Below are positions 3,095 to 43,534 of a DNA stretch of 48,276 nucleotides, one piece after another. The DNA comes from Microgenomates group bacterium GW2011_GWF2_47_9 (GTDB taxonomy: Bacteria > Patescibacteriota > Microgenomatia > UBA1400 > UBA12108). Position 1 is the stretch's first letter; the number at the start of each line of letters is the position of its first letter. Position numbers and translations under genes: made by a program. The notes under the pieces were generated by a model. That model ran no database searches, was not told where the DNA came from, and worked only from the letters and a program-made list of their open reading frames with translations. Location: assembly GCA_001003385.1 (NCBI GenBank), contig LCPA01000001.1:1-48276 (forward strand). Reading direction: 5' to 3'.

Positions 3095-3475
3095 TTATTT
3101 ATTCAGATCGAGATAATCTTCAAGGATAAGACAGGCAGAATAGATGTGATCGTTGGCGAGTTTTTTGCGTTTTGCCCCGATTTCTCTCAGGTTGGCAAGA
3201 GCTGTTTTTGTGGTGAGGGTTTCTTCGTGCAGATGAACTGGGAGACCTAAAGCGAGTTTGACTTCTTCTGCAAACTTTATAACGACGTTTTCAAGTCTAC
3301 CCTCGGGAATGCCAATAACTAATTCCTGAGCCCTGACATCAAGGGCGATTTGTTTGAGCTTGGGGAAAAGGGTTGCGTCGTTTGGGAGAGTGATAAGAGG
3401 TCTCGCAAGTGGCCCATCCGCATAGGCGAGTCCAATGTGTTTGAGTCCGTAGTCAATGCCAAGCATTGTTTTCAT
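3095..3475 (-). CDS. ruvX: Putative pre-16S rRNA nuclease / Holliday junction resolvase-like YqgF
   Basis: 126 aa starting MKTMLGIDYGLKHIGLAYAD (RNase H-like YqgF N-terminus). ATGA overlap with the upstream sortase gene. Sits in the canonical alaS-ruvX-mltG neighbourhood. Confidence 0.85.
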   Translation of the reverse strand: MKTMLGIDYGLKHIGLAYADGPLARPLITLPNDATLFPKLKQIALDVRAQELVIGIPEGRLENVVIKFAEEVKLALGLPVHLHEETLTTKTALANLREIGAKRKKLANDHIYSACLILEDYLDLNK

Positions 3476-4215
3476 CTTAGCTCCGCCTTCACAATTAGGC
3501 GACGAAGGTATGTACCGGGCGGAGTGCAGGTAATGAGGGTCAGGTTGCGCGCTGAGTATGATTGGGCAAGTGGAGTGAGATTGTCTGGCATAACTTCGTA
3601 CATATCGGTTATTGTATAGGTAAATTCAGCTCCATCTGAGTATACCTTGATTTCATCACCCTTACTCAAAGTGTGGAGGGTTGAGAAGATTGTAATGTAG
3701 CTTTCGGGATTAAAGAACTGAGGCAAGACCGAGTGGCCGAAAATAACGGTATTGCCCAGATCTCCTGGCGAGGCGGTGCCGGGATAGTGAATAAGCGAAC
3801 GCTTGAGATCGGTATGAGTGTCTTCGACCGAGGCATTTTCAATCCCAAGACTGGGAATTGAGAGTTGATAACCGAGTGAGGGGGTCTTTGTGGTCTGGGG
3901 GGTGGGGAACCATGTAGTTGAGTCTGTATAGTCGAGAGTGGTGTTGATCATTTCGGGAAAAAAAGCGGGTTCAGATTTTTCTCTTTCAGGCTCCATGGAA
4001 TCTGTTTTGTCACCTGCGACTGAGGGCGTGAGTTCACCAATAACTAAGCGGGGGGCGAGGGCAATTTGATAATAAATGAGTGGATAGGCTACGGAAGTAA
4101 AGGCGGAAATCCCAAGCGTGAGCAAGATTGCTGAAAACGTTTTACGAAGGACTACTGTGGGCTTTACCTTGCGCTTCAACGTGTATCCAGGCGGAGCCTT
4201 GACGTATTTATACAT
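3472..4215 (-). CDS. Sortase-family transpeptidase, membrane anchored
   Basis: 247 aa with an N-terminal TM helix. Catalytic triad contexts are present: VIFGHS (His), LTLITCTPPG (TLxTC Cys) and RRLIV (Arg). Confidence 0.85.
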   Translation of the reverse strand: MYKYVKAPPGYTLKRKVKPTVVLRKTFSAILLTLGISAFTSVAYPLIYYQIALAPRLVIGELTPSVAGDKTDSMEPEREKSEPAFFPEMINTTLDYTDSTTWFPTPQTTKTPSLGYQLSIPSLGIENASVEDTHTDLKRSLIHYPGTASPGDLGNTVIFGHSVLPQFFNPESYITIFSTLHTLSKGDEIKVYSDGAEFTYTITDMYEVMPDNLTPLAQSYSARNLTLITCTPPGTYLRRLIVKAELR

Positions 4216-4259
4216 ATATTTAGTATACGACAGTTGGGTATCAAAAAAGTCGGAGTAGT

Positions 4260-12004: not shown

Positions 12005-12010
12005 ATCTTT

Positions 12011-13666: not shown

Positions 13667-13700
13667 TTTTTCCTTTTTGTTTTAGTATGCCACAGGACTG

Positions 13701-14366
13701 CTACCACTTGATAGGTGCAATTTTGTGCTTTAGTAGATAAGTATTGGTGAGGCTAAAGGGCCGCGACCCAAAAAACCCACTATGAGCCGAGAAGGGAGAT
13801 GGGTGGGGACTCTTTATTATCAGATGTTTGGATCCGTCGACTACGGCCCCCTTTTTTTGGGCATATGCTCCCCATAAAATAAAGACCAAATGCTTTTTTT
13901 GTTCTGATAAAACTCTAACAACCTCGGAGGTAAAATCTTCCCATCCCTTGTTTTGATGAGAACCGGCTTGATTGGCCCTTACCGTTAGGGTAGCGTTTAA
14001 CAAGAGCACCCCTTGTTTAGCCCACCCTTCTAGGTCCCCGCCCGCAAAGGCTGGCGCCTTGCCAGTATCGGACTTGATTTCTTTGTAGATATTTTGGAGC
14101 GAGGGTGGGGGGTGCACTCCGCGGTTCACAGCGAAACAAAGGCCGTTGGCCTGGCCAACGCCGTGGTATGGATCCTGACCCAAGATTACAACTTTGACTT
14201 CGTCAAACGGAGTTAGGTCAAAGGCGCGAAAGATAAACTTGGGCGGCGGGTAAACTTTTTCATCAAGGTATTCTTTACGCACAAAGTCCGAGAGGAGATG
14301 GAAGTAATCTTTTTCAAATTCCTGTTCTAAGACTTTTTTCCAGCTGGGTTCGATCTTGACTTGCAT
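13701..14366 (-). CDS. ung: Uracil-DNA glycosylase, family 1
   Basis: From the internal ATG (complement 14364-14366): MQVKIEPSWKKVLEQEFEKDYF..., GQDPYHG water-activating loop, HPSPFSA leucine-loop region. The 62 Arg/Ser-rich codons upstream in the track ORF overlap the Lon-like gene and look spurious. Confidence 0.9.
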   Translation of the reverse strand: MQVKIEPSWKKVLEQEFEKDYFHLLSDFVRKEYLDEKVYPPPKFIFRAFDLTPFDEVKVVILGQDPYHGVGQANGLCFAVNRGVHPPPSLQNIYKEIKSDTGKAPAFAGGDLEGWAKQGVLLLNATLTVRANQAGSHQNKGWEDFTSEVVRVLSEQKKHLVFILWGAYAQKKGAVVDGSKHLIIKSPHPSPFSAHSGFFGSRPFSLTNTYLLKHKIAPIKW

Positions 14367-14386
14367 GTTTCGGATACTACGACAAA

Positions 14387-15460
14387 CTAGTAGGCAGTCA
14401 TATATTGTTTGTAATTGTCCTTGTTGACTGTGACAGACTGAGTTTTGCCTTCTACAATTTCTCTGGCAACACGACGACAGAGAGCGTGGATGGTTCGCTC
14501 GAGGGTGCGGATTCCGGCGTCGTAGCCGAGAGGACGAGCTACGAGTGGCCATACTTCTTCGGCAATTGTAAGATTGTCGGGAGAAAGGCCGGAGTCTTTT
14601 AGTGCTTTGGGAAGAAGGAAGTTTCGACCAATATGGATTTTTTCTTCGTCGGAGTAACTAGGCATTTGGATAAGTTCAAGACGATCGAGGACGGCAGTTG
14701 CGACGTTGGTTGTGTTGTTGGCTGTTGCGATAAACAGGACCTGGGACAAATCAAGCGGATAGTCCAGATAGTGATCGAGAAAGCGATTGTTTTGAGTGGG
14801 GTCAAGAAGTTCGACAAGGACTCCCATAATATCTGCACGCTCATCAGCTCCGACGCGGTCGATTTCGTCTAGTAAAATTACGGGATTAAAGGATCCGGCG
14901 GACTTTAGAGCTTTTACAATTGCCCCAGGCTCTGCCTCGAGAAATAATCGTGACTTGCCACGAAGATCGCGGGCACTCCCTAGACCACCAAATGGGATGC
15001 GCGCAAACTTGCGGCCCAATACTTCGGCTAGGGAATAGGCAAATGTCGTCTTGCCGGTTCCCACAAGACCAACTAAGAAGATCGCGGGTGCCCGGACACT
15101 ATCCTGGTGGCCGGCGGCTTGGCGGAGTTTGATCGTCGACAAATATTCTAGAATTCTATTTTTGGGTTCTTGCATGCCATGATGAGTTGACTCCATGACG
15201 GAGGCGGCCGCAGAAATATCGAGCTTGTCGGCTGTGTAAATCCCCCAGGGGAGACTGGTAATCCAGCCAATGTAGTGAGAAATACGGTCGTATTCCTGAG
15301 AATATATTCCCGTATCAACCATCCGCTTAAGACGAGTGAGCATTTCCTTCGCTTTTTCAAGAAGCTCGGGCGGGAGCTTGGCGGCTTGGACTGAGGCTGA
15401 AAGTTTGGCAAGTTCGTCGACTAGTCCAGGTTTATTATTGTCTATGGGATCGGATGTCAT
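14387..15460 (-). CDS. Lon-family AAA+ ATPase module without the LAN N-domain or the protease domain
   Basis: 357 aa with Lon-specific pre-AAA helices (YIGWITSLPWG...HHGMQEPKNRILEYL). Walker A GLVGTGKTT, Walker B VILLDEIDRV, sensor-1 ATANN, LDRLELIQMPSY. It ends right after the alpha-helical lid (TLERTIHALCRRVA...). Confidence 0.75.
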   Translation of the reverse strand: MTSDPIDNNKPGLVDELAKLSASVQAAKLPPELLEKAKEMLTRLKRMVDTGIYSQEYDRISHYIGWITSLPWGIYTADKLDISAAASVMESTHHGMQEPKNRILEYLSTIKLRQAAGHQDSVRAPAIFLVGLVGTGKTTFAYSLAEVLGRKFARIPFGGLGSARDLRGKSRLFLEAEPGAIVKALKSAGSFNPVILLDEIDRVGADERADIMGVLVELLDPTQNNRFLDHYLDYPLDLSQVLFIATANNTTNVATAVLDRLELIQMPSYSDEEKIHIGRNFLLPKALKDSGLSPDNLTIAEEVWPLVARPLGYDAGIRTLERTIHALCRRVAREIVEGKTQSVTVNKDNYKQYMTAY

Positions 15461-15487
15461 ACTCTTCTATCGTATCACAGGGGAGCT

Positions 15488-15997
15488 TCAATATGCCGCA
15501 CCCTTGAAATCGGGACAGTTGGCATTTGCCCAGGTGAGGTAGTCGGTTGAGCACTCTTTTTTGGCGGCACCACCTGGCATACAGTCTATCCATTCTACGG
15601 TCGGACATACATAGGTGTTGTCGTTCTCAATAAAACAACTGGAGCCGGGAGCGTGCCAGCAAGAACTGCGACCATTCTCTTCATAGACCCATTGTTCGGG
15701 TGTGCCTGGCTTGTACTGAGACTTTGAGCCGTAGTACCAGCCAGTATTGAGCTCCTTCTGTGTAATTTCGGGAGTTTCCTCGGGGGTGATTGTTTCCTTT
15801 ACACTCTCGCTAAAACTCTGACCGCCCTCAGTTACACAGGTCGCCGGATAGGAAGTGAGAAGAGTACTACCTTTTGATTTGACGCATTCTTCGTAGGAAG
15901 ATACTGCTGGTGAGCTACCACTCTGCAGTCGCCATACTCCGTATACAACGGCGAGTAAAATGAGAATTAAGATTAGTAGTTTTTGTTTTTTCATCAT
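15488..15997 (-). CDS. Exported or membrane-anchored Cys-rich protein, unknown function
   Basis: 169 aa. N-terminal hydrophobic anchor LLILILILLAVVYGV. Ten Cys, mostly in the C-terminal 70 aa (CWHAPGSSCFIENDNTYVCPTVEWIDCMPGGAAKKECSTDYLTWANANCPDF). Confidence 0.45.
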   Translation of the reverse strand: MMKKQKLLILILILLAVVYGVWRLQSGSSPAVSSYEECVKSKGSTLLTSYPATCVTEGGQSFSESVKETITPEETPEITQKELNTGWYYGSKSQYKPGTPEQWVYEENGRSSCWHAPGSSCFIENDNTYVCPTVEWIDCMPGGAAKKECSTDYLTWANANCPDFKGAAY

Positions 15998-33183: not shown

Positions 33184-33450
33184 ATGCCTATTATTAAATC
33201 AGCAATCAAGAAATTAAGAGCCGACATAAAAAAGACCAAGTCGAACCGGCCTGTTCTCTCCAAGCTTAGAACGGCTGTAAAGGCGGCAAAAAAAGATCCT
33301 AGCGAGTCGACAATTAGTCATGCCTATTCGGCAGTAGACAGGGCTACTAAGCGGGGACTTGTGAAAAGAAATACGGCAGCAAGAATTAAGGCAGGGGTGG
33401 TGCGAGCGAGTAAAGGGAAAGTCGATAAATCCCCATTTGCAAAAAAATAG
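33184..33450 (+). CDS. rpsT: 30S ribosomal protein S20
   Basis: 88 aa: MPIIKSAIKKLRADIKKTKSNR... Confidence 0.9.
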   Translation: MPIIKSAIKKLRADIKKTKSNRPVLSKLRTAVKAAKKDPSESTISHAYSAVDRATKRGLVKRNTAARIKAGVVRASKGKVDKSPFAKK

Positions 33451-33482: not shown

Positions 33483-34052
33483 ATGCAAGTACCTGCGTTT
33501 TTTGGAAGAAAGAAATCGGTTAATTTATTGCCGAGGGATTCGTTTGAATCAAGTAGCCTAGGAGTAGTTTTGGAGTGGGCTTTAGCGTTTGGAAAGTGGG
33601 CGGTGATTTTGACTCAACTAGTCGTGATGTTTGCATTTCTCTATAGATTTACCTTGGATCGTAAACTAACTGACCTAAACAAGGAGATGAAACAGCAGGA
33701 GGCTGTCATCAATTCTTACCAGACTCTTGAGGCAGATTTTCTTTTGGCTCAAGCAAGAATTAACTCAATAAAAGAAATTTCAGACAGCCAAGCGAAATTA
33801 TTATCAATGGTCAATATTCTGCATGAGCTGACTCCGCAGGATGTCTGGTACGAAAGGTTGACAATATCTAATACAAACGTGACGATGAGCGCTTATTCTT
33901 CCTCTTTGGCTGGGTTTAGTAGATTAATTACCGCCTTTCAGAACGAGCCACTTTTTAAATCTGTTAATGTTGGAAACATAGAGGATGGTGGGGCAAAGGG
34001 GGCACAACTCAGATTTGATATTTCTCTCATCCACGGGGAGGCCGAAAAATGA
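33483..34052 (+). CDS. PilN-like type IV pilus alignment protein
   Basis: 189 aa with a conserved N-terminal VNLLPRD (INLLP-type PilM-binding motif), one TM helix, a coiled coil, and a ferredoxin-like C-terminus (VWYERLTISNTNVTMSAYSSSLAGFSRLITAFQNEPLF). Confidence 0.6.
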   Translation: MQVPAFFGRKKSVNLLPRDSFESSSLGVVLEWALAFGKWAVILTQLVVMFAFLYRFTLDRKLTDLNKEMKQQEAVINSYQTLEADFLLAQARINSIKEISDSQAKLLSMVNILHELTPQDVWYERLTISNTNVTMSAYSSSLAGFSRLITAFQNEPLFKSVNVGNIEDGGAKGAQLRFDISLIHGEAEK

Positions 34053-34735
34053 GTAATGCTACGAAAATGGCCTACAACCGATACAAAAAATACTCACTAA
34101 ACCTGAGAAATTACTATAAACTGCCTGCAGTACATACGTCGTTGACTCTGGTTTTGTCTTTATTTATTTGTGCATTCTTTATCCTAGTGGCACTACGACC
34201 AACTTTTATCGCAATTGCAAAACTAAATACTACGATTGCAGATTCTAAGAAGACTCTGGCACAGCTTAACGCTAAAGCAGGCGCTCTCCAGCAAGCGGAG
34301 AGAGTTTGGGAGGAGATTAAACAGTTTGAGCCGCAGATAGAAAGGGCGATTCCATCAAAAGGGCCTGCCTATCAAGCCCTAGTACTTTCTGCCGAAGTCC
34401 TTGCTACTTCCTCGAACGTCCAGATTGCAAGTGAAACTATTGGACCGGCACTTACTTTTTCGAGTATTGCTGATCCTTATACGGGAAAGAAGCGTAGTGT
34501 GATAACAATCCCATATTCTGTCCGTGTGACGGGTGAGTACCAAAACATCATGGAATTTATGCGACAGCTTACGAATTTGGACAGAATGATCCAGATAGAT
34601 TCTCTGAGTATTGCGCGTGACGCCGAGGCTGAGGGAGTCGCACAAACTCTAACTTTGAGTGTGTCCGCAAAAACTTATATCGCGGCTGATGAACAGATGA
34701 TCACTAAAATATTAGAAGAACTAAGAGGAAAATAA
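34049..34735 (+). CDS. PilO-like type IV pilus alignment protein
   Basis: 228 aa with a TM helix, coiled coil and C-terminal YSVRVTGEYQNIMEFMRQLTNLDRMIQIDSLSI (PilO signature layout). ATGA overlap with the PilN-like gene. Confidence 0.55.
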   Translation: MSNATKMAYNRYKKYSLNLRNYYKLPAVHTSLTLVLSLFICAFFILVALRPTFIAIAKLNTTIADSKKTLAQLNAKAGALQQAERVWEEIKQFEPQIERAIPSKGPAYQALVLSAEVLATSSNVQIASETIGPALTFSSIADPYTGKKRSVITIPYSVRVTGEYQNIMEFMRQLTNLDRMIQIDSLSIARDAEAEGVAQTLTLSVSAKTYIAADEQMITKILEELRGK

Positions 34736-34737
34736 GG

Positions 34738-35064
34738 ATGGCAAAGAATAGTTTTATCCTCGTTAACAGAAGCCTTTATCATATGGGAGTAGTGACACTT
34801 GTTACCAGCATTTTGTGGGTAGGAATCGGCGTATATAACGCTTTCTCTAATCATGGCGAGCTAGAAATAGCTAAAGAGACCCTGACACCCTTTAACCCAG
34901 GCGTTGACTTGGCAGTTTTGGAGACTCTTAGATCACGAAGAAGTATCGAAGTCGATGAAGCCACAACGACAATAATAGAGGGTTTGGTAGAGGAGGATCT
35001 AGAGGAAAGTGTCCTCACAATAGAACAGGTAGAGGAAGCAAGCGGGAGTGGACAAGAGATTTAG
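34738..35064 (+). CDS. Small single-TM protein with an acidic C-terminus
   Basis: 108 aa with TM helix MGVVTLVTSILWVGIGVY and tail EGLVEEDLEESVLTIEQVEEASG. It starts 2 nt after the PilO-like stop. Confidence 0.45.
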   Translation: MAKNSFILVNRSLYHMGVVTLVTSILWVGIGVYNAFSNHGELEIAKETLTPFNPGVDLAVLETLRSRRSIEVDEATTTIIEGLVEEDLEESVLTIEQVEEASGSGQEI

Positions 35065-35100
35065 CTTGTGTGCATATTAGCTAACTGTTAGTATGAATGT

Positions 35101-36423
35101 GTGAAGCTTTTGATGAGGCGTTTTCCGACTATTTTCGGAATTTTGTTATTAGTGGGAGGGGCGCTGGCGGGAGGCTGGTACTTTTTTAACAATCAACCTA
35201 AAGTAGCGGAAGAGGAGAAACCTCAGCAGGTGAGGATCACAAATATTGCCGATAACAAGTTTGCAGTATCCTGGACTACAAAGGTGCCTACGATCGGAGA
35301 GGTGGAGTATGGGATGGTGGGGGAAAAATTGGAGGCGAAGGTGAGCGATGACAGGGGGGGTGGAACGTATACAACGCATCACATCACAGTTAAGGATTTA
35401 CAACCAAACACCCAGTATGCATTTCGGATATTGTCGGCACAGGCGCGGTTTGACAATAACGGGAGTCCTTATACAGTCGCAACCGGCCCGAGTATTACGG
35501 TGACTCCGACGGCACAGAGCTTTTATGGAAAAGTAGAGGGGAAAGGCGCGGAAGGGTCGATAGTATATTTGGCTTTGCCTTCGGGAGTACCTACTTCAAC
35601 TCTTGTTAATTCGACAGGAAACTACACTTTTTCGATTTCGACTGTCCGGACTCTTGACCTTAAGAAATACGTAGAATATGACAAGGCCGCAACAATCGTT
35701 AATATAAGCATTGTTGACGGAAATGGCACCACAACGGCTACTGTTAATACCGCCAATTCGGCGCCCGTACCTACAATTAGCTTGGGGAAAAACCAAGATT
35801 TTAGGGAAACAGAACAGCCACCCGTCGCCCAAGTTGAGCCTGAAACTCCACCCGTTTTTAATGTTGAACCCCTGAACAATGAAGTAAACGAAGTCGGAGA
35901 CGGAGGAGTGGGTGTCACAATTATAAATCCGGATGAAAATGAAGTGCTTTCAACACTTCGGCCAGAGTTTAGAGGAACGGGAAGAGCTGGTGCGGTATTG
36001 TCAATTTTGGTTCAATCAGCTAAGTCACAGAGCGAAAATGTTGTGGTTCTATCCGACGGGACATGGAGTTGGTCACCCCCGCAGGACCTAAATGAAGGGC
36101 CGGCGACTTTGACAATTACTTATCTTAATACTTCGGGGGTAGAGCAAACAGTTGAGCGAAATTTTAGTATTACAGTTCCAGCATATGGGGCTGACCCGGC
36201 GTTTGAGTCTTCTCCAAGCGCAAGTATAAGTCCCCTACCATCTCCTAGCCAGACAGCAAGTCCGTACCCTAGCTTGTCTTCGTCGGCCTCGGCCACACCG
36301 AGAGAACAGATCCCATCAACCGAGTCGGGGGTGCCTGTAACCGGAGTATTTGAACTTACCCTGTTGACGGGGGGCTTGGGACTTGTCATTATGATAGTGG
36401 GGACATTACTTCTTGTTATATAG
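35101..36423 (+). CDS. Surface protein with an FN3/purple-acid-phosphatase-N-like domain, an Ig-like domain, a Ser/Pro linker and an LPxTG-like C-terminal signal
   Basis: 440 aa with an N-terminal anchor. VRITNIADNKFAVSWTTKVPTIGEVEYG...LQPNTQYAFRI (FN3). INPDENEVLSTLRPEFRGTGRAGAVLSILV...DGTWSWSP (Ig-like). The C-terminus reads GVPVTGVFELTLLTGGLGLVIMIVGTLLLVI. Start is GTG 35101 or ATG 35113. Confidence 0.6.
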   Translation: MKLLMRRFPTIFGILLLVGGALAGGWYFFNNQPKVAEEEKPQQVRITNIADNKFAVSWTTKVPTIGEVEYGMVGEKLEAKVSDDRGGGTYTTHHITVKDLQPNTQYAFRILSAQARFDNNGSPYTVATGPSITVTPTAQSFYGKVEGKGAEGSIVYLALPSGVPTSTLVNSTGNYTFSISTVRTLDLKKYVEYDKAATIVNISIVDGNGTTTATVNTANSAPVPTISLGKNQDFRETEQPPVAQVEPETPPVFNVEPLNNEVNEVGDGGVGVTIINPDENEVLSTLRPEFRGTGRAGAVLSILVQSAKSQSENVVVLSDGTWSWSPPQDLNEGPATLTITYLNTSGVEQTVERNFSITVPAYGADPAFESSPSASISPLPSPSQTASPYPSLSSSASATPREQIPSTESGVPVTGVFELTLLTGGLGLVIMIVGTLLLVI

Positions 36424-36435
36424 GTGCGTGCTTGT

Positions 36436-38049
36436 ATGGACGACAACAAAACAAATTTGAATCCAGCCACAAATGATCAACAGGCCCCTGGTTTGGATCC
36501 GCAAAAATTGGTCGATGAGGCGCTTTCAACTTCTACCCCTGTGGAGCCTGTCGTTGCACCCAACCCTCCAACACCCCCTATTGAACCTGCGATTCCTCAG
36601 GAGACTAAGGCGCCTGAAGCACCCCTCCCCGTTCCTAGTGAAGTAGTCCCGCCCGAACTTTTGACAGTAAAGGTAAGTGATGATCTGCCCCTAGCCTTTG
36701 CGCCGAAAGTTGAGCCAACTGTACAAGCGACACCTGAAGTGGCGCCACCCCTTAATCCACCGGTACCCCCTACGCAGGCGGGAAATGCGAGTCTGCCACC
36801 CAAGAAGAAGAGTAATATTTTGGGAATATTAATTGGATTTTTCCTTTTGCTGGGGGGAGTTGTTGGGGGGTATTATGCCTATACTTATCTCTCAAAGTCA
36901 GAGGTACCATCGATTGCCAACGTTGAGGATTGGACTAAAGATCAGTGTCAGAATGGGTGTAGCCCGAAGAACTTTAAAACTAAATGGGTGAAGGATCACT
37001 GTATCGCAACTGAGGAATCGTGTGACGATAACAACGGCGACGGGGAAGACGATAACGCGATGATTGAGGTGGCTTGTGACAACGACCCAGCAACTACTGA
37101 AGTTCATTGTGACTGTGACGGCAAACCTTTTTGTATCAAGGCAAATAATGTGACATGTAATCAGGCAAAACAAATTAAAGGATGCGGGATAACGGTGGGA
37201 GCCGGGTGTTCTGTTAAATATGTGGCGCCGTATACGGCAAAAATGTGTAGTTGTTACAAAAATAAAAATGACATAACTGGTGGACCTCAAACGATATATT
37301 TTGATAGGACCGGCTGGTGTGATGACAAAGCTTCTCCGGCAGAGAGTCAAGACTCTTCTAAGCCAGGTGCCGATGAAGGTCCTAAGGCGACAACCGGACT
37401 TTGTGCATTGTTCTACCAAGACCGGTGTGCAGGTGACGGAGGAGGCGGAGGTGGGGCAGAATGGGGGTGCGACAATAATGGTTGTTGGGTTAATAATTTT
37501 GGACCTGGTTGCTATGTGAAGAGATATAGCTGTCCTAAAGCAGTTTCGGGATCGTGTCAACAGGGTGGCGAAGACCCTGCTAAGTCGTATACATTTAATA
37601 AAGACTGTGGGAAACAACAGATTGATGTATATTGCGATGGCGCAGACCGCGACTTTAGAACGAAGATTTATCCAGCCGATTGCGGACCTAGTCCCAAGCC
37701 GAGCCCAACGCCATCACCCAAGCCAAGCCCTACTCCCAAGCCTACGATCGCTTGTGCCTCGATTAGCAAGGCACCAACAGGTCCCAAGCTCGGAGAGAGT
37801 GTAACGGTGACTTGTAAAGGAACCGTATCGCCTCCAACGACAATCCTGAACCTAACTTACCAGTTTAGATATCGAGTCGGAAAACTGACTGAGGTTGAGA
37901 GCCTGCCGTGGATAAAACTGACGGCGAACGCAGATAAAGCTACGTTTGTGGCCGACGAGCCAGGAGTTTATCAGGTGCAATGTAGAACCTGTGCCAAGAT
38001 TGGAATGTTTAATGTATGCGAACCGAAGTGGGGGGCGACACCGCTATGA
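36436..38049 (+). CDS. Type-II membrane protein with a Pro-rich N-terminal segment, a ~300-aa Cys-rich ectodomain, a PT linker and a C-terminal Ig-like domain
   Basis: About 537 aa from ATG 36436 (the track uses GTG 36424). TM helix ILGILIGFFLLLGGVVGGYYAY. About 30 Cys lie between residues ~170 and 420. Linker SPKPSPTPSPKPSPTPKPT. Confidence 0.5.
   Translation: MDDNKTNLNPATNDQQAPGLDPQKLVDEALSTSTPVEPVVAPNPPTPPIEPAIPQETKAPEAPLPVPSEVVPPELLTVKVSDDLPLAFAPKVEPTVQATPEVAPPLNPPVPPTQAGNASLPPKKKSNILGILIGFFLLLGGVVGGYYAYTYLSKSEVPSIANVEDWTKDQCQNGCSPKNFKTKWVKDHCIATEESCDDNNGDGEDDNAMIEVACDNDPATTEVHCDCDGKPFCIKANNVTCNQAKQIKGCGITVGAGCSVKYVAPYTAKMCSCYKNKNDITGGPQTIYFDRTGWCDDKASPAESQDSSKPGADEGPKATTGLCALFYQDRCAGDGGGGGGAEWGCDNNGCWVNNFGPGCYVKRYSCPKAVSGSCQQGGEDPAKSYTFNKDCGKQQIDVYCDGADRDFRTKIYPADCGPSPKPSPTPSPKPSPTPKPTIACASISKAPTGPKLGESVTVTCKGTVSPPTTILNLTYQFRYRVGKLTEVESLPWIKLTANADKATFVADEPGVYQVQCRTCAKIGMFNVCEPKWGATPL
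37687..37746 (+). repeat. Low-complexity (SPKPSPTP)n linker-coding repeat
   Basis: cct agt ccc aag ccg agc cca acg cca tca ccc aag cca agc cct act ccc aag cct acg. Confidence 0.7.
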
Positions 38050-39470
38050 GAATAACTATGTCGAAAAACACAAGGTCGGTGTTGGTTGGAATAGGGATCT
38101 TTGTTGTGATTATTCTCGGCCTTGGGGTGCTTTATACAGTACGACGAGCGGAACCTCCTACTCCTACCCCTACTCCAGAAGCCTCGCCGATTACCCCAGA
38201 AGTTTTTCAGGTCTCGCCTGACGCATGCGAGCTTTCCTTCACCATCCCCACCCTACCGCTAATCCCGGGCTTGAGCTGTGTTGACAAAAGGCTCTTTCGA
38301 GATGACCCCAATAACACACCAGGCAATTATGACCTTGCCGGTAACGAACTACCAAAAGGAAGGGAGCTTATCCTCGGGAATAGGTATGTGTATGTAATCA
38401 ACTACAAGAATAGCGGGACGGGGGCTGTCGGAGGCAAGATAGTCGATACCCTGCCTGATGGGATTAGCTTTGTGGATGCAAGCGCGAAGTGTACGAACGC
38501 GAGTGGAGTTGTAACCTGTCTACTGGATACGATTGACGCGAACGGGGTTGGGTATGTGGCGATCAGAATCAAGGTAGATAGTAATACCAAAGCTGAAACA
38601 TTTAAGAACGTGGCTAGAATGGTACCAAACAAGGGGGATGAGTCGGTATGTAGACTGACCAACCCGATTCAGGTCATCGAGACACCAGTCTGTAACGAGG
38701 CATGTAATGACACCAACTTGTTGTGTGAAACAGGCCTAGTTTGTTACAAACAGCCAGGGCAGACAACGGGAGTATGCCGCAATAACCAATGCCTCGAAGA
38801 AGAAGATTGTTTGTGTAGTTCTGCGACCCCTTCTCCCTCCCCTTCCACTTCCGCTTCCCCCTCGCCATCCCCTTCTGTGCCGGGTAGCGCGAACCCAAGT
38901 CCGAGTCCTTCAGAGGGCCAGTCGGCGGAATTGGATTGTGTAGTCAAGCGAGCTTACGAAGACGACGAGCGAAATACTCAGGGCCAATATTATCTAAATA
39001 CCGAGATAACTGATGCTAACACCCTCTCGAATGGCCAGTTTATTGTTTACAACATTGTGGTTGCAAATAACGGCGGAGCGGCTGTATCGGACACAACAAT
39101 TACCGACGTTTTGTCGAATAATTTGGAGTACGTTGACGCGGATAATGACTGTTCCTATAACGCAGAAGTAAAAACTGTGACCTGTACTGTTGGGTCTTTG
39201 CCCTCAAACACCCAAGTCTCCCGCTCAATAAGAGTCAAGATTGTGGTTGCCGGAGCAAGTTCGATCAACAATACGGCTGACATATTCTCGACCAACGGAC
39301 AGAGAGACGCATGTAGTATTTCGGTGAACGCAACCGGACAAGTAGTGCAACCTCCTTCTCCGATCCCGACCGAGTTGCCAGAGGCAGGAGTCTTTGAGAT
39401 TACCGTAGGCACACTTGGGGCCGGATTCTTGCTCCTACTCTTGGGCGCACTTGGATTATTGCTCTTGTAG
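38046..39470 (+). CDS. Surface protein with two DUF11-type (conserved repeat) domains, a Cys knot, a PS linker and an LPxTG-like C-terminal signal
   Basis: ATGA overlap with the upstream gene, and an N-terminal TM helix. Two repeats of the pattern YVINYKNSGTGAVGGKIVDTLPDGISFVD...VTC / YNIVVANNGGAAVSDTTITDVLSNNLEYVD...VTC. The C-terminus reads ELPEAGVFEITVGTLGAGFLLLLLGALGLLLL. Confidence 0.6.
   Translation: MRITMSKNTRSVLVGIGIFVVIILGLGVLYTVRRAEPPTPTPTPEASPITPEVFQVSPDACELSFTIPTLPLIPGLSCVDKRLFRDDPNNTPGNYDLAGNELPKGRELILGNRYVYVINYKNSGTGAVGGKIVDTLPDGISFVDASAKCTNASGVVTCLLDTIDANGVGYVAIRIKVDSNTKAETFKNVARMVPNKGDESVCRLTNPIQVIETPVCNEACNDTNLLCETGLVCYKQPGQTTGVCRNNQCLEEEDCLCSSATPSPSPSTSASPSPSPSVPGSANPSPSPSEGQSAELDCVVKRAYEDDERNTQGQYYLNTEITDANTLSNGQFIVYNIVVANNGGAAVSDTTITDVLSNNLEYVDADNDCSYNAEVKTVTCTVGSLPSNTQVSRSIRVKIVVAGASSINNTADIFSTNGQRDACSISVNATGQVVQPPSPIPTELPEAGVFEITVGTLGAGFLLLLLGALGLLLL
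38817..38912 (+). repeat. Low-complexity Pro/Ser linker-coding region
   Basis: Encodes SSATPSPSPSTSASPSPSPSVPGSANPSPSPS. Confidence 0.7.
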
Positions 39471-41843
39471 TTATTTCCAGCTAGGGATGAGATGAAAGAT
39501 ACTGTTCCAGTAAGTGCTTGGCATGGGAAACCCAAGATGAAGCGGTAAGCTAAGAAGAAAACCCAAGACTATAAATCCAACGAAGACATAAATAAGAGCG
39601 CGAGGGAGTTTGAGGAGCCAGGCGGAAAGTAAAACGCACAGGAAGACTGAGGAGGGGAGATAGTGATAAAAGAACATAATCCGGGGAGAAAATATCCAGG
39701 GCACGACAAAACTAGCGTAGAGAACATAAAAGAGGAAATATTTATAGCGCCTTAAATAGATGAGGGACGAGATAAGAGCGACCAAACCTAGCCAGAGCAA
39801 GGGGGGGTTTCCTTGAGCGTAGATATTGGTAAGTTTTTCACCATACTCAACAAAGTACCAAACTGGACGCAGGGAAAAGATCCAGTCCAGGGGAGTGGAT
39901 TGATAGGCATGAGTTGCCACAAGGTGGGTGTGATAGTGCCACATTTGCCGTTGGAGCTCCCACCACTCTCCCCAAGTGTGCCCCGCGACAATGAAGGGTG
40001 TGAAAGTAAGCACATAGACAATTAGGGCAATCATTATTAGCCTAATAGCGTGAAGGATGCTCTTGAGCTTGAAGAAAGTATGGGGAAAAGAGTGGAGGAA
40101 GATAACCGCAAGAGGGACAAGACCATAAACGGCACTCCATTTACTAGACAAGGCGAGTCCCCAAGCAAGACTTGCAAGTTTAAAGCGAGATTTGACAGCC
40201 AAATAGAGTGCCCACAATAGAAATGTAAGCATAAAAATATCGTTCATGGCGATCCGGGACTGAGATAAGTGAAGACCTTCGAGGGTAAGAAGAAAACTAG
40301 AAAGAAGTGCCAGGCGCCTGTTGTGCCAGACAGACTGAACCAAGAGATACAAGCCAAGAACGCTTAACGCACCAAAAAGAGCCGAAGGGAGGCGCCAGCC
40401 GAGCGAGTTTTCACCAGCGACAAGCATGCCTGCGACCATGAAGTATTTGGCGAGCGGAGGGTGAGTCCATTCATAGGCGACTCCGGGAGGGGGGGTGGTC
40501 CACCATTCCCAGGCAGAGATGTTGTTGTTTAACAGCTCTCTGGCGGTAAAGGCGTGGTAGACTTCGTCGAAAATGTATTGCGTCGGATAGCTAAGGTTGA
40601 CAAGACGGACAGAAAGCGCAAAAAGCAAGATTGTCGACAAGACAATGTTTTTAAAAAAACGAGAGGCAAAACTGCGCAGACTGGCAAGCCAATCCCAGGA
40701 CAAACTTAGAAAAAGCGCGATCAGGACATTGAGAGAGGACACAAACCTAATAAAAACAAAAGAGACAGGCCAAATCTGATCAGCCGACCAGAGATAGGCG
40801 GCATAAAGATTGGCAATATAGGTGAGAGTGAGGAAAGAGGTGGGAATGATAATTGAGGGAGAAAAAGAGGCGGCGAGAGCTAAAAATGGCAAGCCAAAAA
40901 GGAGATGACGCTCGTGCATACGAGTGGTAAAAACATAAAAGTTGACAAAAACAGAGCCAATGATGAGAGGTAGATAGGTGGATTTGAATTGACGCCTTTT
41001 CCAATTGAGGAAATTGAGTAGAGTGGTCTGCAAAAAGAGGAAATAGCCTAGAAACTTGCCTGAAATACCTAGGATAGAAAGGTTGTCACTAGGCCATGCG
41101 CTTGCGGTTTGTTTGAGCGACCAAAAGTTCCAGGCATTTATCGTGGTGTAGGGATAGGTTCCTGCCTGCTCGACAGCTTTGTCAAATAGAAACTGAAAAG
41201 GGTGAAGAGGACTTGCGGGAAAGCCGGGCAGGAGGAAGACAGAGAATGAAACAAGCGAAAAAATGAGGGCATTTTTTTTGTTGCGCCTGAAGGTCAAGAA
41301 AAGCAGGAAAGGTAGGGCGAGAAGCATAATGGGTTTGAAGGATGTAGCCAACCCAAAATAAACAGCGCCTAGGATGTGGTTTTTCCGTAGCGTTTGGAGG
41401 GATAAGAGGGTGAGGAGGGCCGGAATAGTATCTAGCTGGCCCCAGAACGCGCTATCGCCGATCAAGGCCGGAGAAAGGAAAAGAAAAATACTGAAGATCC
41501 AAAAATTGGATTTGGGAGACGCGACAAATATTTTGAGGAGTAAAAATAGCTCGAAAAAAGAAATAAGGAGCTTGAAAACAAGACCAAAGGTGAGGCCTAA
41601 ATTTTGAGATATTATAACGATGGGAACAAGAAAATAAATGGGGAGCGGGAGATAGTCGGACCAAGTGGAGGCAAAAAAATCGGCAGGCCCCTTCTCGAGC
41701 ATAAGATTACCCCAGGCATGATAGGTATCGATGTCGTAAGTGTGGGCGGGAGTAAAGGCGCCGTAGATTCTTATAAGAATGCTAAGGGCTAACACCAAGT
41801 AAAATAGACCGCGCTTATTGGCTATTGAGGGAGTTGTCGACAT
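39471..41843 (-). CDS. Tandem GT-C membrane glycosyltransferase: N-terminal GT-C module fused to a C-terminal PMT/GT39-like protein O-mannosyltransferase module
   Basis: 790 aa with more than 20 TM helices. First module has HTYDIDTYHAWG in loop 1. Second module has YPTQYIFDEVYHAFTA (PMT DE motif), THPPLAKYFMVAG and SRIAMNDIF. Confidence 0.65.
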   Translation of the reverse strand: MSTTPSIANKRGLFYLVLALSILIRIYGAFTPAHTYDIDTYHAWGNLMLEKGPADFFASTWSDYLPLPIYFLVPIVIISQNLGLTFGLVFKLLISFFELFLLLKIFVASPKSNFWIFSIFLFLSPALIGDSAFWGQLDTIPALLTLLSLQTLRKNHILGAVYFGLATSFKPIMLLALPFLLFLTFRRNKKNALIFSLVSFSVFLLPGFPASPLHPFQFLFDKAVEQAGTYPYTTINAWNFWSLKQTASAWPSDNLSILGISGKFLGYFLFLQTTLLNFLNWKRRQFKSTYLPLIIGSVFVNFYVFTTRMHERHLLFGLPFLALAASFSPSIIIPTSFLTLTYIANLYAAYLWSADQIWPVSFVFIRFVSSLNVLIALFLSLSWDWLASLRSFASRFFKNIVLSTILLFALSVRLVNLSYPTQYIFDEVYHAFTARELLNNNISAWEWWTTPPPGVAYEWTHPPLAKYFMVAGMLVAGENSLGWRLPSALFGALSVLGLYLLVQSVWHNRRLALLSSFLLTLEGLHLSQSRIAMNDIFMLTFLLWALYLAVKSRFKLASLAWGLALSSKWSAVYGLVPLAVIFLHSFPHTFFKLKSILHAIRLIMIALIVYVLTFTPFIVAGHTWGEWWELQRQMWHYHTHLVATHAYQSTPLDWIFSLRPVWYFVEYGEKLTNIYAQGNPPLLWLGLVALISSLIYLRRYKYFLFYVLYASFVVPWIFSPRIMFFYHYLPSSVFLCVLLSAWLLKLPRALIYVFVGFIVLGFLLSLPLHLGFPMPSTYWNSIFHLIPSWK

Positions 41844-42825
41844 ATTGATGTACTTCCTGCCAACTATTAGTCGGGACTAGGACCCATTGTCCAGCGTATG
41901 GCGTTTTGAGACGAGGGGTAGAGAAGAATGTTTCTAAGTTATATGAAGAGATTTTTTGACCATCTTTTTCAAACGACAAGAAAAACTTGAGGAAACTGCC
42001 GAGTTCATCCTTGCTAATATCGGCATTGATCGAGGAGGCAAAACTGTCATAGACATTTTTGAGGGTATCGGGTGCCAAAAAAGTTTTTGTTTCGAGAAGC
42101 TTATCCTTGAAAGCAAGGATAATTTTTTGTTGACGGGCAGAGCGGGCAAAGTCGGTCCCCTCTTCTCCTTCGGCGTGGCGGGAACGGGCAAACTTGAGGG
42201 CTGTTACACCATCAAGATGAGTGGGGCCGGCCTCGAAACGGAGATGTTCGTAACGCTCACTCTCTGGAAAAACATCTTCTTTGCCTGGAACCGGGTATTT
42301 GTAATCGTCGAAGGCCCGTTCAACAACAACATCAATACCACCAAGCGCATCAATAGCCTTAATAAAACCCTGAAAGTCTAGGACGAGAGCATAGTGAACC
42401 GGCTCACCCACAATCTCGGAGACAGCAGATTTAGCTAGAGCGATTCCCCCACCCTCCCGACGCTCCAGGCCATAGTGGTAGGCGGTGTTGACCTTGGCTT
42501 GCATAGTATCAACCCAAATGTCGCGGGGAATGGGGACGAGTTTAACAGAATGAGTAGAGTGGTTAAGAGAGACGAAAATAATGCTGTCCGTCAGGTCGGG
42601 AGCGCTGTGACCTACACCCCCTATCCCCAACAAGACTAGATTGGTCCGATTGTCGCTGGTCCTTAGTTCTTCGGCGGGGTTAGTGACCAAACCCGAAACA
42701 ACGGAACGGGTGGTTTGACTTTTGAAGAGAAGGACAAAAACAGAAACCGCAACTAAGCCAAGTCCCACAAAAAGAAGGACAAGTCTGTTGGTGACCGTAA
42801 TCGGGTTTTTAACTTTTGGATCCAT
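41815..42825 (-). CDS. LytR-CpsA-Psr (LCP) family phosphotransferase
   Basis: 336 aa with a TM anchor. RTNLVLLGIGG...DSIIFVSLN...VKLVPIPRDIWV...KVNTAYHYG...ALVLDFQGFIKAIDALGGIDV. Confidence 0.85.
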   Translation of the reverse strand: MDPKVKNPITVTNRLVLLFVGLGLVAVSVFVLLFKSQTTRSVVSGLVTNPAEELRTSDNRTNLVLLGIGGVGHSAPDLTDSIIFVSLNHSTHSVKLVPIPRDIWVDTMQAKVNTAYHYGLERREGGGIALAKSAVSEIVGEPVHYALVLDFQGFIKAIDALGGIDVVVERAFDDYKYPVPGKEDVFPESERYEHLRFEAGPTHLDGVTALKFARSRHAEGEEGTDFARSARQQKIILAFKDKLLETKTFLAPDTLKNVYDSFASSINADISKDELGSFLKFFLSFEKDGQKISSYNLETFFSTPRLKTPYAGQWVLVPTNSWQEVHQYVDNSLNSQ

Positions 42826-43489
42826 TTTGGGAATAAGTAGAGCAGACGTTAATAATATCGATAAAACTCTTTGAGTTTAGGCAGGCAGTCGAGACAAGGA
42901 GGCCTGAGACATGGGGAATAAGAGGGACGGCGTTACCGGCGTTGACGGAGCCACCATACATAACGCGGGCTTGCTCGCCGATGATTTTTTTAAACTCTCC
43001 TACGGTACCCACGATGTCCTCAAGGGGGGCAGTATCTGTGCCGCCTATGTCTGCGGGGGGTTCGTAACAATAAATAGGAGAGAGAATATTGCAGGTAAGA
43101 GCACTTAATTGGGGCGCTAGATCTGATTTGGAGAGGCAGAGGATTGGGGTGATGCCTACACCCAAAAGGAGGTCAACTTTGTTGGCGATTTCGACCGGTG
43201 TTTCATGGAAATACTTGCGGCGTTCGGAATGGCCCACCAAACAATAGGTGACTCCAAAATCTTTGAGTTGATCGGCGTTGACCGCTCCGGTATAGGAGCC
43301 AGGCGGAAAGGGAGAGACGTCTTGGGCGGCAAGGACAAGAGGAGAGGACACTAGGGAGAGATGGGGGAAGGAAGGGGCGACAACCAGAGATAATGAGGAG
43401 GGGGCGTGGGGAGTTACGTCTCTGACCCAAGAAACAACATCTTCCTTGAGCTTGTTTGATTTGAAGGTGGCTGTGAGCAGAAAACGCAT
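42809..43489 (-). CDS. tpiA: Triosephosphate isomerase (divergent)
   Basis: From the ATG at complement 43487-43489: MRFLLTATFKSN (compare GNWKLN), LVGHSERR, CYEPPADIGG (compare YEPVWAIGTG), MYGGSVN. The track start at 43528 would add 13 aa and leave 6 bp to the divergent gene. Confidence 0.8.
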   Translation of the reverse strand: MRFLLTATFKSNKLKEDVVSWVRDVTPHAPSSLSLVVAPSFPHLSLVSSPLVLAAQDVSPFPPGSYTGAVNADQLKDFGVTYCLVGHSERRKYFHETPVEIANKVDLLLGVGITPILCLSKSDLAPQLSALTCNILSPIYCYEPPADIGGTDTAPLEDIVGTVGEFKKIIGEQARVMYGGSVNAGNAVPLIPHVSGLLVSTACLNSKSFIDIINVCSTYSQNGSKS

Positions 43490-43534
43490 GAGGTTAGTAT
43501 ACCGCAAGGCACCTATTTCGGGTATCATGTGTGA

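Follow-up and report, generated by a model that had tools for sequence, protein, structure and literature searches.

A conserved PilN/PilO operon linked to a fused double GT-C glycosyltransferase, a candidate pilus-associated cell-surface module of Microgenomates bacteria

Why would pilN and pilO, two genes of the type IV pilus, stand next to genes for surface proteins and a large membrane glycosyltransferase and apart from all other pilus genes? The question is raised by a stretch of 48,276 nt (hereafter the window, analysed at its full length; contig UY18_C0001, LCPA01000001.1) of Microgenomates group bacterium GW2011_GWF2_47_9, an uncultured member of the candidate phyla radiation (CPR) whose genome comes from Rifle aquifer groundwater. 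The block of interest (proteins KKU89300-KKU89307) encodes PilN, PilO, a small membrane protein, a protein with fn3 and Big_13 domains (the fn3 protein), a Cys-rich protein and a DUF11 protein on the plus strand, and, convergent to these, a double glycosyltransferase of the GT-C (glycosyltransferase fold C) type and a LytR-CpsA-Psr (LCP) enzyme. An earlier note, made from the letters of this DNA, had proposed nine genes as one pathway for secretion, glycosylation and wall anchoring of adhesin-like proteins, and had suggested that PilN and PilO serve something other than a type IV pilus. Judged by its gene content, the conserved operon looks like an undescribed pilus-associated cell-surface module, in which PilN and PilO most likely represent detached components of an ordinary type IV pilus machine rather than a new system. 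The fuller reading, to which we give an even chance, is that of a composite envelope locus of Woesebacteria-like Microgenomates, in which a pilus core is combined with variable surface proteins and with a GT-C enzyme that would glycosylate their linkers, an LCP enzyme being encoded nearby.

Both pilus proteins were recognized by their family profiles. PilN matches PF05137 over residues 109-181 with 35.1 bits (cut-off 22.8), and it consists of an N-terminal cytoplasmic peptide, KKSVNLLPRD (N-terminus MQVPAFFGRKKSVNLLPRDSFE), one transmembrane (TM) helix at residues 34-52 and an extracellular PilN domain. The segment [SA][IV]NLLP[RK]D.FE.S is invariant among about 30 distinct orthologues, and the NLLP motif is kept in distant loci as well (KLINLLPQEEF in L053 and NVNLLPKDDFE in L055; L numbers denote loci of relatives). 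From structures of PilM-PilN complexes, we take the NLLP-type peptide to be the site that binds PilM, a cytoplasmic actin-like protein, and its strict conservation argues that a PilM partner exists. PilO matches PF04350 with 52.7 bits (cut-off 22) and is built of a TM helix, a long helix of the coiled-coil type and a domain with ferredoxin-like fold. A profile search with the PilO orthologues matched the PilO entries 3jc8, 2rjz and 5uvr of the PDB (Myxococcus, Pseudomonas). The AlphaFold2 (AF2) model of PilO, with a mean predicted local distance difference test (pLDDT) score of 72, contains a long helix followed by a beta-alpha-beta domain, and its best Foldseek matches were again PilO, namely 3jc8_O (E = 4.5e-7), 2rjz and 5uvr. 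The best match of the fold is thus the PilO of the type IVa pilus (T4aP) machine. The two assignments made in the earlier note therefore stand above the Pfam thresholds and, for PilO, in the comparison of folds.

Between pilO and the fn3 gene there is always one small gene, including in L053, L054 and L055. Its 108-aa product, for which we found no Pfam or NCBIfam match, has a TM helix with an invariant Thr and an invariant Trp, followed by a short motif conserved on the extracellular side (P..P.[LV]D...L..L..R) and by a disordered tail that is acidic or rich in Pro, Ser and Thr. The fn3 protein starts with a TM helix that carries a conserved (K/R)xPTI motif and continues with the fn3 domain, a middle beta domain, a Big_13 Ig-like domain, a Pro/Ser/Thr linker, the sequence GVPVTG and a hydrophobic helix; in the alignment of orthologues the C-terminal pattern preceding this helix is R..[IM]P[SA]T.[SG]GVPV[TS]G. 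The family is large, with 3165 hits in an exhaustive search and 449 cluster representatives at E <= 1e-30, mostly full length. Among 140 full-length members, an N-terminal TM helix was found in 135, a C-terminal TM helix in 138 and a PSTA-rich linker in 135; an xPx[TSAP]G motif precedes the C-terminal helix in 106, and 74 of those 106 have a basic tail. Motif, helix and tail are the three elements of the classical signal for sortase. A search of the PDB with the fn3 profile returned generic fn3/Ig or low-complexity matches only. Residues conserved inside the N-terminal helix suggest that this helix is retained as an anchor; if it is, the mature protein would have one end in the membrane and the other attached to the wall.

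The wall end of this proposal comes from sorting-type C-termini, which the earlier note had missed. The fn3 protein ends in VPVTG plus a TM helix and the DUF11 protein in ELPEAG (LPEAG) plus a TM helix, and these are the sole open reading frames (ORFs) in the window with a sortase-type signal. All orthologues of the DUF11 protein have LP.AG and a TM helix, and the signal of the fn3 protein is likewise conserved in all of its orthologues. PEP-CTERM, PGF-CTERM and GlyGly-CTERM were considered for these C-termini and rejected on inspection, because the motifs are of the form [LIV]PxxG, the basic tail of classical signals occurs in distant members and the window encodes a sortase. This sortase, the only one in the window (PF04203, 88.5 bits; TIGR01076, 57.5 bits with a cut-off of 39.35), is a candidate enzyme for both signals, and wall anchoring of the fn3 and DUF11 proteins appears plausible from the conserved signals.

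The two remaining surface proteins are less uniform. The Cys-rich protein (537 aa), which has no Pfam or NCBIfam family, comprises a Pro-rich N-terminal region, a TM helix at residues 128-146, 29 Cys residues, the linker PSPKPSPTPSPKPSPTPKPT and a conserved C-terminal domain of about 100 aa; its orthologues can be aligned at the ends only, with 30-40% identity, and it is fast-evolving. In strain L002 the gene (11823-13436) is split into ORFs of 244 aa and 284 aa. The DUF11 protein (484 aa; the DUF11 family is now named CLIPPER) begins with a TM helix or signal, which is followed by two DUF11 domains (PF01345, 67.2 bits in two stretches, cut-off 24.6; TIGR01451, 45 bits) with a PS-rich linker between them, and it contains 17 Cys residues. 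It matches the RrgB isopeptide domain weakly, and the PDB sequence search gave generic fn3/Ig or low-complexity matches only. No alignable match to the solved CLIPPER domain 9IFR was obtained; by eye only, VVK/TDVL/NNTA and VDK/VDTL/KNVA stand where the Lys-Asp-Asn isopeptide triad is expected. Its 90%-identity cluster (window 38016-39470) contains forms of 474, 484 and 486 aa, so that linker length differs between strains. Each of the three large surface proteins has one clear Pro/Ser/Thr-rich linker, and composition bears out what the earlier note had said on this point.

The double GT-C enzyme was also foreseen in the earlier note, and its two halves can now be named. The C half (residues ~396-790, 39471-40658) matches PMT, PMT_4TMC and PMT_2 above cut-off over residues 404-782 (PF02366, 54.5 bits with a cut-off of 22.7; PF16192, 51.8 bits with a cut-off of 32.4) and resembles the solved Pmt1 and Pmt4 in the PDB. 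Its segment IFDEVYHAFTA (residues 424-434), invariant in the orthologues, is the loop-1 Asp-Glu (FDEV) motif of protein O-mannosyltransferases (PMT). The N half (residues 1-395, 40659-41843) matches the GT87 family PF09594 over residues 66-280 with 23.8 bits, just under the cut-off of 25; GT87 is recorded for several orthologues, and L013_g5 passes with 30.7 bits. Its AF2 model (pLDDT 92) found as best Foldseek matches ALG6 (3e-5), PimE 9dm5 (7.6e-5; TM-scores 0.64/0.66), GPI-MT-I, ALG3 and ALG9, a fold by which GT87 cannot be told from the ALG and PIG-M families. These are small GT-C enzymes (yeast ALG6 and mycobacterial PimE among them) that extend glycans from polyprenyl- or dolichyl-phosphate sugars. 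The first-loop Asp37 is invariant in 53 sequences. Profiles and structural model together confirm the 790-aa protein as a fusion of a predicted PimE/ALG-like half with a predicted GT39 PMT-like half. At least 846 homologues exist, mostly fused and mostly annotated as Woesebacteria or Microgenomates; to our knowledge, a fusion of Pmt-type and PimE-type activities has not been described. A gene of L051 that appeared to be a natural PMT-only form was rejected as such, as tblastn places an N half directly upstream, and it is probably a frameshifted or mis-called fusion. In actinobacteria, a GT39 Pmt places the first mannose on Ser/Thr of Sec/Tat substrates, typically within Pro/Thr/Ser linkers; the glycan is then extended by PimE, an enzyme of family GT87 (PMC12757957).

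Homologues of PilO are few and belong to one clade (7 by the first homology search, 34 by the profile search), which makes PilO a poor anchor for distant contexts and the fn3 protein a better one. A scan of the genome collection with a 5-sequence PilO alignment found one locus, L009, with the same synteny, and the fn3-anchored metagenome scan added 35 loci of the same order, with which three contexts obtained from GT-C homologues agree. The order in the close clade is DnaK-GrpE-HrcA-LepA-MurJ (minus strand), S20-PilN-PilO-small-fn3 (plus), variable genes, GT-C/LCP/triosephosphate isomerase (TIM) (minus) and UvrD-FemAB (plus). A ThsB-like TIR-domain gene and an 8xMP gene stand beside the DnaK operon of L008 (753-1632, minus strand) and may be a defence island inserted in the syntenic block. 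Each of the approximately 55 loci that span the core has PilN-PilO-small-fn3. By comparison, the genes of the Cys-rich and DUF11 proteins are variable: they evolve fast, differ in domain number and are missing from L013/L014 and L029.

Wherever a locus is long enough to show it, GT-C genes border on the core, and they do so in four arrangements. The window and most loci have the convergent fused gene. In L013, L014 and L028 the N half has a gene of its own on the strand of the operon, accompanied there by one more GT87-family gene (30.7 bits), and the PMT half alone stays with LCP-TIM. In L053 (fn3 30%, DnaK 63% identical) S20 and pilN are parted by two inserted opposite-strand genes and LepA is gone; after the core come two more proteins, one of them with ELPPAG and a TM helix at its C-terminus, and then a convergent fused gene of 810 aa without adjacent tpiA or LCP. 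Between this gene and the LCP gene (13068-15784) lie two polytopic membrane proteins of 361 and 551 aa without a Pfam match, which may be further divergent GT-C-like or flippase-like components. In L055 (fn3 31% identical) S20-PilN-PilO-small-fn3, a FAD oxidoreductase and three PMT-family genes are all co-directional in one operon. The oxidoreductase, FAD-dependent and amine-oxidase-like, also follows the fn3 gene in L054, where the order is small-fn3-oxidoreductase (L055 3429-4712, overlapping the first PMT gene by 20 nt; L054 2007-2843); it may act in the same pathway by modifying a sugar or a lipid. The GT-C genes thus remain beside the core in four arrangements, unlike tpiA, lepA and rpsT, which supports a real functional link between core and GT-C and, with it, a link to O-glycosylation of the Pro/Ser/Thr linkers; the evidence speaks for the link but does not settle it. 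For LCP the case is less strong. The enzyme itself is well recognized (PF03816, 107.3 bits; TIGR00350, 90 bits with a cut-off of 62.3; N-terminal TM helix at residues 15-33), as the earlier note had it, and falls under the cut-offs of the TagU, CpsA and LytR equivalogs; its gene adjoins the GT-C gene in the close clade and lies two genes away in L053.

A number of observations weigh against the composite envelope locus. The housekeeping flanks are as syntenic as the block genes in the close clade (DnaK 75-88% identical) and partly so in L053 (HrcA-MurJ-S20), so synteny within this clade says little about function. The genomes are compact and tpiA sits inside the LCP/GT-C operon, which makes adjacency weak evidence of a common function. 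Promoter and terminator scans of the window gave counts equal to the shuffled expectation, that is, chance level, and therefore hold no information on operon structure. The PMT half reaches 55 bits against the Pmt equivalog NF058602, far below its cut-off of 800, and no polyprenyl-phosphate-mannose synthase was found in the window. The fn3 and DUF11 proteins of the window end in hydrophobic residues without the basic tail of classical sorting signals, and the sortase gene is 30 kb from the surface-protein genes. Finally, that pilM, pilB/T, pilC, pilD and the pilins are encoded elsewhere in the genome is something we infer from the 48-kb window and the CPR literature.

Some of these points would be equally expected if two unrelated units lay side by side by descent, pilN-pilO with the surface proteins on one side and, on the other, a tpiA-LCP-GT-C operon that makes and attaches a wall glycopolymer and glycosylates no neighbouring protein. 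We consider this alternative doubtful. LCP and GT-C enzymes serve arabinogalactan or teichoic acid glycopolymers. In the close clade synteny extends over the entire stretch between DnaK and FemAB, translational coupling joins tpiA and LCP, the wall genes MurJ, FemAB and YkuD are nearby, and insertions fall exactly at the boundary between the two operons. Glycopolymers are what LCP enzymes normally attach to peptidoglycan (PMC7831098). What such an arrangement by descent leaves unexplained is that GT-C is still beside the core after moving onto the operon strand (L013, L028, L055) and that the linkage is kept where adjacency to tpiA, LepA and S20 is lost. Moreover, the C half is specifically PMT-like, with the FDEV motif of protein O-mannosyltransferases, and every conserved exported protein of the locus has a Pro/Ser/Thr linker typical of Pmt substrates.

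The synteny check suggested in the earlier note for its nine genes thus had a divided outcome. The core is invariant and GT-C stays attached to it, but the Cys-rich and DUF11 genes vary, some loci lacking them (L013, L029), and the flanks (DnaK-GrpE-HrcA-LepA-MurJ-S20 and UvrD-FemAB) are no less syntenic. Of the pathway proposed there, wall anchoring is plausible and GT-C appears linked beyond shared ancestry, but the evidence does not support nine genes as one unit, and tpiA belongs to the LCP/GT-C operon. The nine genes are better described as a four-gene pilus-associated core, variable sortase-type surface proteins and a linked GT-C enzyme, with LCP and tpiA as neighbours. Nor is the block the only one in the window that is not housekeeping, as had been thought, since the sortase and a 736-aa protein form another and YkuD, FemAB and MurJ are also encoded there.

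We then considered the pilus to which PilN and PilO would belong. In agreement with the earlier note, Pfam scans of the larger ORFs found no PilM, PilB/T, PilC, PilD or pilin in the 48-kb window, and a six-frame motif search found no prepilin-type N-terminus in it. No PilM, assembly ATPase, platform protein, prepilin peptidase or pilin was co-located within 10 kb in any relative, except for one pilin in L050. This is a canonical type IV pilin (5785-6405, plus strand; MPRKQG|FTLLEV) encoded between FemAB and UvrD, with a Cys-rich C-terminal domain and without a Pro/Ser/Thr linker; the window has no gene at the matching position. The 736-aa protein beside the sortase (KKU89274) was tried as a hidden PilM/GspL-like protein and dropped, having no Pfam match at E <= 10 other than a weak one to Baseplate_J (E = 0.008), no NCBIfam or PDB match and no available homologues from which to build a reliable model. 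Its cytoplasmic N-terminal region of about 260 aa is actin/FtsA-like by eye only; the protein also has a Pro-rich segment, a single TM helix (near residues 365-385) and, outside the cell membrane, a large part. In the literature, PilB/T/C/M/N/O and pilins are widespread in the CPR and sortase is near-ubiquitous in Microgenomates (PMC6744442). In Saccharibacteria, pilM/N/O lie inside full type IV pilus loci (PMC11623550), whereas the single type IV pilus locus of the closed Microgenomates genome Ch65 lists PilA, minor pilins, PilD, PilB, PilT, PilC and PilM, and not PilN/PilO (PMC7143001), which fits a detached pilN/pilO.

The invariant NLLP peptide and the canonical pilin of a relative argue that PilN and PilO are still part of a pilus system and, together with the T4aP PilO fold, speak against the different role that the earlier note had allowed for. 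The same evidence bears on a quite unlikely alternative, in which PilN, PilO and the small TM protein were recruited from the pilus as a platform for export, glycosylation and sortase anchoring of fn3 and adhesin-like proteins. Such a recruitment would account for about 55 loci in which pilN/pilO are never beside pilM/B/C and always beside the small and fn3 genes, for the specific residues conserved within the TM helices of the small and fn3 proteins, and for the GT-C linkage; it would hardly account for an invariant PilM-binding peptide, PilM being a dedicated component of the type IV pilus, for a PilO that matches T4aP PilO best, or for the pilins of the lineage, and the locus encodes no ATPase or translocon, while Sec export needs no such platform. 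Pseudomonas has in TfpW a GT-C enzyme that arabinosylates pilin, a parallel for the idea that the GT-C enzymes of the locus glycosylate type IV pilins at the PilN/PilO platform and that the neighbouring surface proteins are incidental. Despite the persistent linkage of GT-C genes to pilN/pilO and the frequency of pilin O-glycosylation, which is predicted for Saccharibacteria pilins too (PMC11623550), we regard this idea as highly improbable, as the locus lacks a pilin, the Cys-rich pilin of L050 has no Pro/Ser/Thr linker and PMT-type enzymes act on Sec/Tat substrates with such linkers (PMC12757957).

Returning to the composite envelope locus, its parts might work together as follows. PilN and PilO would act as the alignment pair, in the membrane, of a type IV pilus machine that is otherwise ordinary and whose other components are encoded elsewhere, and PilN would dock PilM by its NLLP peptide. 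The small TM protein and the fn3 protein would be lineage-specific partners of this pair. With its N-terminal helix in the membrane and its C-terminus linked to peptidoglycan by sortase, the fn3 protein would probably bridge membrane and wall at the pilus base, in a role analogous to that of PilP/PilQ/TsaP in diderms. A second layer would consist of variable surface proteins with Pro/Ser/Thr linkers, namely the Cys-rich one and the CLIPPER one, which bears the LPxAG signal. On these linkers, the GT-C enzymes would most likely start and then extend O-mannose-type glycans from polyprenyl-phosphate sugar, as actinobacterial Pmt and PimE do, and the LCP enzyme, probably co-transcribed with tpiA and GT-C, may attach a glycopolymer to peptidoglycan or possibly to a sorted protein. 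It is possible to go further and to propose that PilN-PilO make up, with the small TM protein and an fn3/Big_13 protein tethered at both ends, a hitherto unrecognized wall-spanning pilus base that takes over the function of PilP/PilQ in those CPR bacteria that have a cell wall and no outer membrane, and that assembly of this base depends on dedicated GT-C enzymes, among them a fused O-mannosyltransferase for initiation and extension, which glycosylate the wall-crossing Pro/Ser/Thr linker before sortase fixation; this we consider unlikely.

Type IV pili are thought to be central to host attachment and DNA uptake in CPR/Patescibacteria. The partners of PilN/PilO described here, the small TM protein and the doubly tethered fn3/Big_13 family, are candidates for the components that let a pilus cross the CPR wall without a secretin, and together with the linked GT-C enzyme they provide testable leads on CPR surface glycosylation. 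We know of no previous study of either subject. The fused PimE-like and PMT enzyme would, in addition, be a compact model for coupled initiation and extension in bacterial protein O-mannosylation. Should the linkage reflect inherited gene order only, the finding reduces to an ordinary annotation of envelope genes.

The coordinates of the locus and of the neighbouring genes that bear on it are collected in Table 1. The ORFs, overlaps and domain assignments of the earlier note hold for all nine; public gene calls use slightly later starts for the fn3 gene (35113) and the Cys-rich gene (36436). An ATGA overlap joins pilN and pilO, a gap of 2 nt separates pilO from the 108-aa gene, and the Cys-rich and DUF11 genes share another ATGA overlap provided that the latter starts at 38046. 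No nucleotide separates the two convergent stop codons (39470/39471). On the minus strand, the LCP gene overlaps the start of the GT-C gene by 29 nt and tpiA overlaps the start of LCP by 17 nt, which places tpiA at the head of this operon, a feature that the earlier note had left out; tpiA is a housekeeping passenger in it. Likewise, rpsT is probably merely a neighbour of the pilN operon.

Table 1. Positions of the genes of the locus and of neighbouring genes in the window
Feature	Position	Strand	Basis or remark
rpsT (ribosomal protein S20)	33184..33450	+	PF01649 E = 4e-11; same orientation, directly upstream of pilN
PilN-like, 189 aa	33483..34052	+	PF05137
PilO-like, 228 aa	34049..34735	+	PF04350
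Small single-pass membrane protein, 108 aa	34738..35064	+	no known family
fn3/Big_13 stalk protein, 436 aa	35113..36423	+	fn3, Pur_ac_phosph_N, Big_13 matches
Cys-rich type II membrane protein, 537 aa	36436..38049	+	no family match
CLIPPER/DUF11 surface protein	38046..39470	+	PF01345, two stretches
Fused double GT-C glycosyltransferase, 790 aa	39471..41843	-	PMT, PMT_4TMC, PMT_2 matches
LCP (LytR-CpsA-Psr) phosphotransferase, 336 aa	41815..42825	-	PF03816
tpiA (triosephosphate isomerase)	42809..43528	-	PF00121 E = 1e-40
Sortase, 247 aa, TLITC motif	3472..4215	-	PF04203, TIGR01076

The other envelope genes of the window encode a YkuD L,D-transpeptidase, FemAB and MurJ, and a second envelope block (3472-6470, minus strand) has the sortase beside the 736-aa membrane protein. 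Two further observations concern the window as a whole. An FtsK/SpoIIIE protein (9302-12004, minus strand) has an unusual C-terminal extension past the gamma domain, with HTH_25 and a Glucodextran_B-like beta domain. GC skew is positive over the whole window irrespective of gene orientation, and the sign of the AT skew switches near 30 kb; strand composition disparity is reported for another Microgenomates genome (PMC7143001).

Four characterized systems invite comparison with the locus. In Actinomyces oris, LcpA glycosylates the sortase-anchored protein GspA (PMC6381275). As in that LcpA-GspA-SrtA system, an LCP enzyme, proteins with sortase signals and a sortase are found here within one genome region; the LCP gene of the window differs in being apparently co-transcribed with GT-C and tpiA, and nothing favours protein over peptidoglycan substrates. 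The DUF11 protein shares with sortase-anchored fibrillar adhesins with CLIPPER/DUF11 stalks (PMC12617251) an N-terminal signal or anchor, CLIPPER domains, a linker and an LPxAG-type signal, but it is short (one or two domains) and Cys-rich, and its signal is without a basic tail. With actinobacterial O-mannosylation by Pmt and PimE the locus has in common a GT39-like C half with FDEV, a PimE/ALG-type GT-C N half and neighbouring exported proteins whose Pro/Ser/Thr linkers resemble those of known substrates; what differs is that both halves form one 790-aa polypeptide, of low identity to the characterized enzymes, and that the organism is a CPR bacterium. The closest parallel to the core is the PilM-PilN-PilO alignment subcomplex of the T4aP (Pseudomonas, Myxococcus, Thermus; also PilMNO of the Saccharibacteria loci), with which it shares the PilN and PilO hidden Markov model matches, a single TM helix in each protein, the coiled coil and ferredoxin-like fold of PilO and the N-terminal NLLP peptide of PilN. 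It differs from this subcomplex in that pilM, pilB/C/D and the pilins are not adjacent and PilP and PilQ are missing, and in that a small TM protein and an fn3/Big_13 protein with a sortase signal always follow pilO.

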